A stretch of 63,624 nt of DNA, filler included, from 17 parts of 17 records of this genome joined end to end with filler, not necessarily neighbours in it; one strand, 5' to 3'; counted from the first letter of the whole stretch, positions 45,391 through 46,335 are shown. The notes: a model not told the origin generated them from the sequence alone. Made by a program: numbers and translations.

Positions 45391-46335
45391 TTAAAATAAA
45401 TGGCAATTGCGCTTCTTTTTGGGCTTTTTCTTGGGGAAGATAACAGCACGGATAGCTTCATCGAAGACATTTTTCAATCCTTTCTGGGTTAAGGCGGAAC
45501 ATTCAAGGTATTTGACAGCACTTATTTCCTTCTGCATTGCCAATCCCTGGCTATAACTAATTGGTGCTGCTTTCTTCTTCTTGAGTTCTTCAATGGTTTC
45601 TTTATCATCTCTCAAATCCAGCTTGGTTCCAACAAGTATTATTGGAGCAGTAGGAACGTGGTGTCTAACTTCCGGAAACCATTTTGCTCTGATATTTTCA
45701 AAAGATGTTGGACTTATCAAGGAAAAACAAAGCAGAAACACATCCTATGGAATTTACGTAACGAATGAGTCATGTTTGCCATAGTAACATACAATTAAAA
45801 CGATTACTCACTGTTTGCGGATAAGAAAGTGGTCGTAACCTATCGTAGTCCTCCTGGCCAGCAGTATCCCATAAGCCCAAATTGACGGGTTTGCTATCAA
45901 CCATTACATTAGCCGAATAGTTATCGAATCTGCAGGAAAGAAATTAATAAAAACGATAAAAGAGTATATCTGCAATATAAAGGTAAAACATCTCACAAAG
46001 ACAAACGAGTGGCAAAAGGGCGAGTCATTCGATAAAACAGAAAATAAACTCATGCGACGTTTAAACGTGAAGGTTAGATACTTTCACAAACATGAAGTAA
46101 TCATGATGAAAGGAAGAAAGATTGCGTTTGAAACGGACTACGCATGTTTATCCATTCATTAGGAAACTTACACAGTTGGGATATACTCGCCAGGAAAGGA
46201 GTTTGTCGTGTAACTTATGAGTAAGCATGTTTTACCCACGGCGCTGAAAAAGAAAGAACTTACACAGTAGGAATATAATCCTCGGGAAATCTATTTGTTG
46301 TATAACTAATCAATAAGCATGTTTTACCAACAGCG
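45391..46335 (-). CDS. RAC1: Rac small GTPase, exon 1 missing, with two alternative copies of exon 2
   Basis: Exons 46264-46335 and 46172-46243 (72 nt each), 45812-45929 (118 nt, [39 protein letters not shown], with Rac-type W56) and 45391-45744 ending in polybasic KKKPKKKRN + CHLF. Confidence 0.95.

Follow-up and report, generated by a model that had tools for sequence, protein, structure and literature searches.

Candidate mutually exclusive switch I exons separated by a 20-nt spacer in a Rac-subfamily GTPase gene of a probable protostome

The window, i.e., the whole 63,624-nt stretch of DNA analyzed here (G+C content ≈ 30%), consists of approximately 17 small contigs (2–6 kb) connected by 16 linkers of the structure N44-TTAATTAATTAA-N44 with stops in six frames (e.g., 46564–46663), and, since the contigs are chained in this way, adjacency of genes across any linker is no evidence of their linkage. 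The contig at 41818–46563 carries on its minus strand a gene for a Rac-subfamily Rho GTPase, with an arylsulfatase-like gene downstream on the same contig and strand. In this Rac gene, the exon coding for the P-loop and switch I is present as two tandem copies, exons 2a and 2b, which are separated by a spacer of only 20 nt (Table 1). The reading that we favor, with a probability of roughly 0.6, is that the twin exons form a mutually exclusive switch I pair held apart by a spacer that would be unspliceable.

The Rac identity of the gene was established from the exons that follow the pair. In a comparison with PDB chains, exon 4 matched human Rac1 with scores of up to 191.9 bits and Cdc42 with scores from 145.4 bits, and the first 49 among the matches listed were Rac1, Rac2 or Rac3. 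The exon 4 product aligned without gaps to residues 76–191 of the full-length Rac protein P0001 at 79% identity; its named database relatives were Rac1, the closest protein was 83% identical, and the protein collection contained no sequence of the source organism itself. Besides the motifs given in Table 1, it contains the Rho insert region, and the terminal CHLF is directly followed by the stop. Exon 3 encodes DTAGQEDY and Trp56, the Rac-type residue that corresponds to Phe56 of Cdc42, a difference between the two proteins that is described in the available sections of PMC13503879. Both exons occur as single copies in the window when searched with P0001 by tblastn. Exon 1 is absent because only 228 nt of the contig remain upstream of exon 2a, and the numbering of “exon 2” is by homology only; the start of the P-loop (GDG) would fall in exon 1, beyond the contig, and Rac residues 1–12 had no match anywhere in the window in the same tblastn search. 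The source organism is a metazoan, probably a protostome.

Table 1 Features of the Rac gene and its surroundings on the contig at 41818–46563
Feature	Coordinates	Strand	Description
Upstream intron, 3' part	46336–46563	minus	228 nt, ended by the contig edge; without Rac exon 1
(TATG)n microsatellite	46537–46563		At the contig end, within the intron upstream of exon 2a; found by Tandem Repeats Finder
Exon 2a	46335–46264	minus	72 nt; residues 13–36, P-loop and switch I; R27, E30, D31
Spacer GTAAGTTCTTTCTTTTTCAG	46263–46244	minus	20 nt; donor of exon 2a, followed immediately by the exon 2b pyrimidine tract and acceptor
Exon 2b	46243–46172	minus	72 nt; residues 13–36; S27, G30, E31; near-canonical Rac
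Intron, exon 2b to exon 3	46171–45930	minus	242 nt
Exon 3	45929–45812	minus	118 nt; residues 36–75; donor GTGAGT; 95% identity to P0001 residues 37–75 (tblastn)
Intron, exon 3 to exon 4	45811–45745	minus	67 nt
Exon 4	45744–45391	minus	117 codons plus stop; residues 76–192; TKLD, CSAL, polybasic tail, CAAX box CHLF

The first-pass annotation of this DNA had described two tandem 72-nt exons of equal phase, with intact acceptors and donors and in frame with the 118-nt exon 3, and all of these elements were indeed found in place. Each exon is preceded by TTTCAG, followed by GTAAGT, begins at codon position 3 and encodes AVGKTC; the acceptor of exon 2a is TATTTCAG, and its pyrimidine tract is weaker than that of exon 2b. 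The copies differ at 17 of 72 bases (76% identity, no indel), and 13 of these 17 differences are located at third codon positions. A recount by coordinates agreed with the earlier figures of ten codons changed synonymously and three residues replaced (R/S27, E/G30 and D/E31 in the order 2a/2b). In exon 2a, the P-loop residues and those that bind Mg or the nucleotide are all intact, and no stop, indel or loss of a splice signal has occurred. This short exon is not contained in any open frame of at least 40 amino acids. The twin exons were also recovered by Tandem Repeats Finder as a repeat at 46165–46341 (period 92, 1.9 copies, 80% matches, 0% indels), and its score of 235 was the highest among the 104 rows for the window.

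Outside the exons, the similarity of the two units decreases in successive 10-nt blocks from 8/10 through 5/10 to 1/10 upstream and from 7/10 through 3/10 to 1/10 downstream. This fading within 10–20 nt of the exon edges fits a duplication unit of ~92 nt and argues against a mis-join of haplotypes or paralogs. The proposed event would be a tandem duplication of ~92 bp that included the P-loop/switch I exon, ~11–14 nt of the upstream acceptor region and 6–7 nt of the downstream donor region, and it would have created in one step the spacer in which a donor stands next to an acceptor. The alternative that the tandem arrangement is absent from the genome and was produced in assembly, by the collapse or mis-joining of alleles or of paralogous Rac genes, draws on the high fragmentation of this assembly and on the microsatellite that terminates the contig at a distance of 228 nt from the pair, on its upstream side. 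We regard it as very improbable, since the copies are only 76% identical without an indel, the spacer is composed of exactly a donor and an acceptor, exons 3 and 4 are single-copy, similarity is lost within 10–20 nt of the exon edges, and wrongly joined alleles or paralogs would be expected to have common flanks, overlaps that are almost identical or an abrupt junction, not a diverged unit in phase and with functional splice signals.

The divergence of the twin exons points to an old duplication. According to the method of Nei and Gojobori (NG86), the copies show 11 synonymous differences over 17 sites and 6 non-synonymous differences over 55 sites, which corresponds to a synonymous divergence (dS) of 1.49, i.e., near saturation, a non-synonymous divergence (dN) of 0.118 and a dN/dS ratio of 0.08 for the exon pair. 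The excess of differences at third codon positions is significant (binomial P = 3.4 × 10−4). When 17 changes were placed at random in 200,000 trials, no trial combined three or fewer residue changes with the absence of a stop; on average, 10.8 residues were changed, and 36% of the trials contained a stop. If exon 2a had evolved neutrally at 0.32 per site (half of the uncorrected synonymous divergence), 17.6 non-synonymous changes would be expected against the 6 seen (P = 2.5 × 10−4), and under the same assumption, the survival of all 12 core splice-signal bases would have a probability of ~0.01. The six non-synonymous base changes are all confined to the three codons of the switch I surface (27, 30 and 31), and the ten other altered codons differ only synonymously.

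The third-position bias, the low dN/dS ratio and the intact splice signals together reject long neutral decay of either copy, and on this evidence, both copies were kept protein-coding for most of the time since the duplication. The view put forward in the first-pass annotation, that the duplication is old and that both copies have been under purifying selection, is therefore borne out by the dS value, the dN/dS ratio and the third-position periodicity. Gene conversion was also considered as a cause of the pattern of differences and was rejected, since conversion would make synonymous and non-synonymous differences vanish alike.

The residues by which the copies differ are located in a part of Rac that hardly varies among animals. 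The canonical switch I motif was present in 73 of the 76 readable sequences among the 120 nearest database proteins (the remaining three had other motifs) and in 85 of the 87 readable sequences among 106 members of ten Rac clusters, the two others beginning with NT and NS, respectively. Exon 2b has one conservative change from the canonical motif, which is also found in P0278, whereas the motif of exon 2a was encountered in none of these 76 and 87 readable animal Rac-like proteins, and the combination E30/D31 in none of the 87 readable cluster members. Judged by these comparisons, exon 2b is essentially a canonical Rac switch I, and exon 2a departs from it at the invariant or nearly invariant G30 and E31. 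A separate observation concerns P0077 from Ceratitis capitata (named Rac1, 196 amino acids), the sole animal match among the 120 nearest proteins with Glu at position 30; its switch I reads NEFPEEYIPTV, a divergent N-terminal part is joined to a canonical Rac1 C-terminal part, so that the record may represent a chimeric transcript model.

A scan of metagenomes for the switch I pattern gave 55 loci, and 16 of these encode the exact switch I of exon 2a, with a frame open from the P-loop to DTAGQ in 11 of the 16. The loci represent unspliced or distant Rho-family genes that are at most ~66% identical to exon 4. What these intact Rho-family genes of other eukaryotes show is only that R27/E30/D31 makes a workable switch I.

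Lapouge et al., in 2000, are reported to have found that A27 and G30 decide the specificity for p67phox, and a role of both residues in p67phox binding had been assumed in the first-pass annotation. For residue 30, this assumption is supported, since Gly30, together with Glu31, appears in the Rac–p67phox interface list of PMC8387964; for residue 27, it is not, since Ala27 is not named in that list as given in the available part of the article. At the same time, the assumed contribution of residue 27 to selectivity toward DOCK exchange factors is in line with the lobe B interface of DOCK6, at which Cdc42 has Lys27 and Ser30 and Rac1 has Ala27 and Gly30 (available sections of PMC13503879). Exon 2a encodes a basic residue at position 27, as in Cdc42, and replaces Gly30 by an acidic side chain; plausibly, the 2a isoform may thus differ in the choice of guanine nucleotide exchange factor (GEF) and effector, with nucleotide binding kept.

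The 20-nt spacer had been contrasted in the first-pass annotation with the longer introns of the window, and this contrast was upheld: the shortest delimited intron candidates measure 49, 51 and 56 nt, and those of the Rac gene itself 67 and 242 nt. A heuristic scan for micro-introns gave just one further candidate, an 18-nt GTAAGT...CCTAG segment with open flanks at 3958–3975 on the minus strand, which probably arose by chance within coding sequence. Comparable spacers have been described in C. elegans, where they separate egl-15 exons 5B and 5A (14 nt) and let-2 exons 9 and 10 (30 nt), pairs that were never seen joined; clusters with such short introns are five in number (egl-15, let-2, bet-2, gly-5 and gly-6), and spacers of this kind are present in 5 of the 10 clusters with exons of 3n length, the minimal intron of this species being ~40 nt (available part of PMC4165533). 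For human genes, 57 clusters with a donor-to-branch-point distance below 50 bp, and hence potential steric interference, are given in the available part of PMC5740500. The Rac twin exons would resemble the C. elegans clusters in that a spacer well below the minimal intron stands between homologous tandem exons of 3n length, with a steric block to double inclusion. As the exon length of 72 nt is a multiple of 3, nonsense-mediated decay (NMD) could not remove a Rac transcript that includes both exons, and it is under this condition that the C. elegans clusters depend on short spacers. The Rac exons differ from those clusters in that the gene is a Rac gene, in that exclusivity is deduced here from sequence and was demonstrated there by reverse transcription PCR, and in that the source, according to the database matches, is not a nematode.

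Could the spacer nevertheless be spliced out as a micro-intron, so that both exons would be included and Rac would carry a repeated 24-residue P-loop/switch I segment? The joined exons would indeed be in frame (144 nt, 24 extra residues), and the spacer ends conform to the consensus. However, apart from the doubtful 18-nt match mentioned above, no other coding-flanked candidate intron below 49 nt was found in the window, and C. elegans does not splice out spacers of 14–30 nt (PMC4165533, available part). Moreover, a pair of P-loop/switch I segments within 45 residues of each other was found in 0 of 120 longer Rac-like database proteins, and a duplicated P-loop strand would be expected to misfit the fold of the G domain. 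Among the explanations considered, this one is the least probable.

If the spacer were retained, it would be read as GT|G TAA, i.e., a stop directly after V36. Such a stop could serve a poison-exon switch, in which the use of exon 2a with the spacer and exon 2b retained would lead to premature termination and mRNA decay and would thereby control the dosage of Rac; 14 clusters of C. elegans are partly NMD-dependent, as stated in the available part of PMC4165533. A poison exon, however, needs no coding constraint, whereas exon 2a has third-position periodicity, a dN/dS ratio of 0.08 and a strong GTAAGT donor, and we therefore consider this explanation improbable.

In the case of a mutually exclusive pair, the branch point for the acceptor of exon 2b would have to be located within the spacer or just before it, at the very end of exon 2a, on or beside the donor of the latter. 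Since this donor overlaps the branch-point/pyrimidine-tract region of exon 2b, binding of U1 at exon 2a and of U2AF/U2 at exon 2b would be mutually exclusive, and since a 20-nt spacer would be too short to excise, a transcript would carry 2a or 2b, never both. When exon 2a is chosen, it would be joined to exon 3, and exon 2b would be lost inside a 334-nt intron. The possible mRNAs would thus be 1-2a-3, 1-2b-3, a spacer-retaining form with TAA after V36 and a double-skipped form without the P-loop, and the protein products would be a near-canonical Rac with S27/G30/E31 and, from exon 2a, a variant with R27/E30/D31 that is altered only at the switch I surface read by partners. Folding of 46150–46360 in comparison with shuffled sequences (z = 0.24) did not point to any RNA structure of the selector or docking type.

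The G+C content at third codon positions (GC3) is 0.17 (4/23) in exon 2a, 0.48 (11/23) in exon 2b, 0.44 in exon 3 and 0.38 in exon 4 (2a vs. 2b, Fisher P = 0.057). Exon 2b agrees in codon composition with the other exons of the gene and for this reason probably provides the major form, and the GC3 contrast hints that exon 2a is either a minor or regulated form or is falling out of use. A further step in the interpretation would be that an ultra-compact splice switch toggles residues 27, 30 and 31, one locus giving two GTPases that are wired to different GEFs and effectors. This is possible, but it is a tentative proposal that we would put somewhat short of even odds, and the same caution is due to the part of it according to which, apart from this gene, the R27/E30/D31 state occurs only among Rho-family members in distant eukaryotes.

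Several observations weigh against a mutually exclusive pair. The low GC3 of exon 2a, together with its weaker acceptor tract, would be compatible with rare use or recent abandonment of this exon, and the three residue changes, all of which are on exon 2a at invariant or nearly invariant positions of Rac, might be how decay begins, at the surface positions that are least critical. Statistically, there is room for a brief neutral phase in the recent past: after six neutral substitutions, the probability of three or fewer residue changes is 0.20, and with a neutral exon 2a at 0.20 differences per site, the probability of six or fewer non-synonymous changes is 0.058. The intron census is based on sequence heuristics and on few candidates in 63 kb, and it gives a rough lower bound on the minimal intron. 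Exon 1 and the promoter are missing from the contig, and the gene may be incomplete. Finally, no relative with the same twin-exon arrangement was found among the metagenome loci, in the prokaryote genome collection or among the longer database proteins. None of the 55 metagenome loci matching the switch I pattern has a tandem P-loop/switch I exon pair, and the pattern donor–short gap–acceptor–AVGKTC had 0 matches in the prokaryote collection, in which a search for relatives with exon 4 gave two distant loci (54–58% identity).

Some of these points would be expected if one copy, likelier exon 2a, had been functional for a long time but were now idle or a source of splicing noise, a single near-canonical Rac being made from exon 2b. 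This explanation, although unlikely in our estimation, is the main rival: the third positions of exon 2a have drifted toward AT in comparison with those of the three other exons, its pyrimidine tract is weaker, its residue changes are located where animal Rac almost never varies, and six neutral substitutions would be compatible with the data. On the other hand, an idle exon 2a has to be reconciled with the lack of any indel, stop or splice-signal loss and with the intactness of all P-loop, Mg-binding and nucleotide-binding residues. The restriction of non-synonymous changes to three surface codons, with synonymous changes only in ten others, also speaks for constraint, and the recurrence of the exact 2a motif in intact Rho-family genes elsewhere would be unlikely under random drift. 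The mutually exclusive pair is still preferred, on evolutionary and anatomical grounds.

Alternative isoforms of small GTPase genes are known, and their comparison with the twin exons is instructive. Rac1b results from a cassette insertion next to switch II of vertebrate RAC1, which alters the coupling to regulators and effectors, and a chain named isoform Rac1b (1ryf) was among the listed PDB matches of exon 4. It shares with the present case that a Rac gene gives an alternative isoform, but it involves no substitution of homologous exons, no tandem pair and no steric mechanism. The Rab6A/Rab6A' event reportedly uses a duplicated exon. The alternative exon of RAB6A is a different one, with ordinary intron spacing. 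Like the Rac twin exons, human RAB6A is one small-GTPase gene with two isoforms distinguished by three residues, and Rab6A and Rab6A' are produced by alternative splicing (available part of PMC3578815, and the title of Echard et al. 2000 in its reference list); unlike them, it belongs to the Rab family rather than the Rho family, and its differences flank another part of the G domain. In G-alpha genes, mutually exclusive duplicated exons are described for GNAO (exons 7 and 8) and for the amphioxus preGNAI and preGNAQ (available part of PMC5896119). The analogy would lie in a local duplication of an exon for a partner interface of the G domain and in its mutually exclusive use, whereas the GTPase class and the structural elements are different, and no ultra-short spacer is described in that part of PMC5896119.

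Substitution-type isoforms may also exist in the Rac genes of other protostomes. The Lineus longissimus Rac1 isoforms X1 and X2 (P0002 and P0031) are identical up to residue 97 and have 20 differences over residues 98–188, and two consecutive DVFL...CAAX segments were observed in mollusc, annelid and mite gene models, from Paralvinella, Ostrea, Dreissena, Oppia and Mytilus (P0338–P0341 and P0346). In Rac genes of other protostomes, the last coding exon (residues ~76–192) thus appears to have been duplicated in tandem. In those genes, however, the duplicated exon is that of the insert, tail and CAAX box, which is single here, where the P-loop/switch I exon is doubled instead.

The first-pass annotation had treated the arrangement as one that is not known to have been described, and the literature searches likewise brought up no Rac or Rho gene in which the P-loop/switch I exon is reported to be duplicated or to have a mutually exclusive partner. 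The terms RAC1, CDC42, RAB6A and GTPase are absent from the main texts of three catalogs of mutually exclusive or duplicated exons, PMC5740500, PMC9741552 and PMC8373072, the supplementary tables of which might list such genes, and the word “GTPase” is likewise absent from the main text of PMC4165533. Since steric mutually exclusive exons and substitution-type isoforms of small GTPases are already known, the novelty would be that of an instance: a twin switch I exon pair in Rac is probably a new one.

Among the other genes of the window, the neighbor of the Rac gene on the same contig is arylsulfatase B/I/J-like (42531–44153, minus strand) and consists of a 487-codon open exon (42531–43994) after a short exon, with a start resembling a signal peptide. 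The proteins found for it, from nemerteans, molluscs, arthropods, brachiopods and deuterostomes, are only 34–35% identical, and such a low best identity indicates that the lineage is isolated in current collections. On the neighboring contig, the segment at 47090–47340 (minus strand) encodes what we take, by eye, to be the C-terminal end of an RGS-domain-like protein. The open frames at 15896–21368 (minus strand), presumably of a receptor guanylate cyclase-like gene, were likewise judged by eye to include ligand-binding, kinase-like and cyclase segments. The candidate introns in this stretch are ~110–140 nt long.

Only a few residues allow exchange factors and effectors to discriminate between Rac and Cdc42, and positions 27 and 30 belong to them. 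If the twin exons are used as proposed, the natural exchange of residues 27, 30 and 31 through the choice of exon would offer a ready-made experiment in which the partner selectivity of Rho GTPases could be studied, and the 20-nt spacer would rank among the most compact steric splice switches and would test how near to each other a donor and an acceptor may lie. If exon 2a is not used, the locus would be a clean case of a long-preserved and recently retired exon. With both exons in use, signaling diversity would be obtained in this organism by splicing instead of gene duplication, and the pair would be an exon-level substitute for the differences that distinguish Rac/Cdc42/RhoG-type paralogs at the same positions in other animals.

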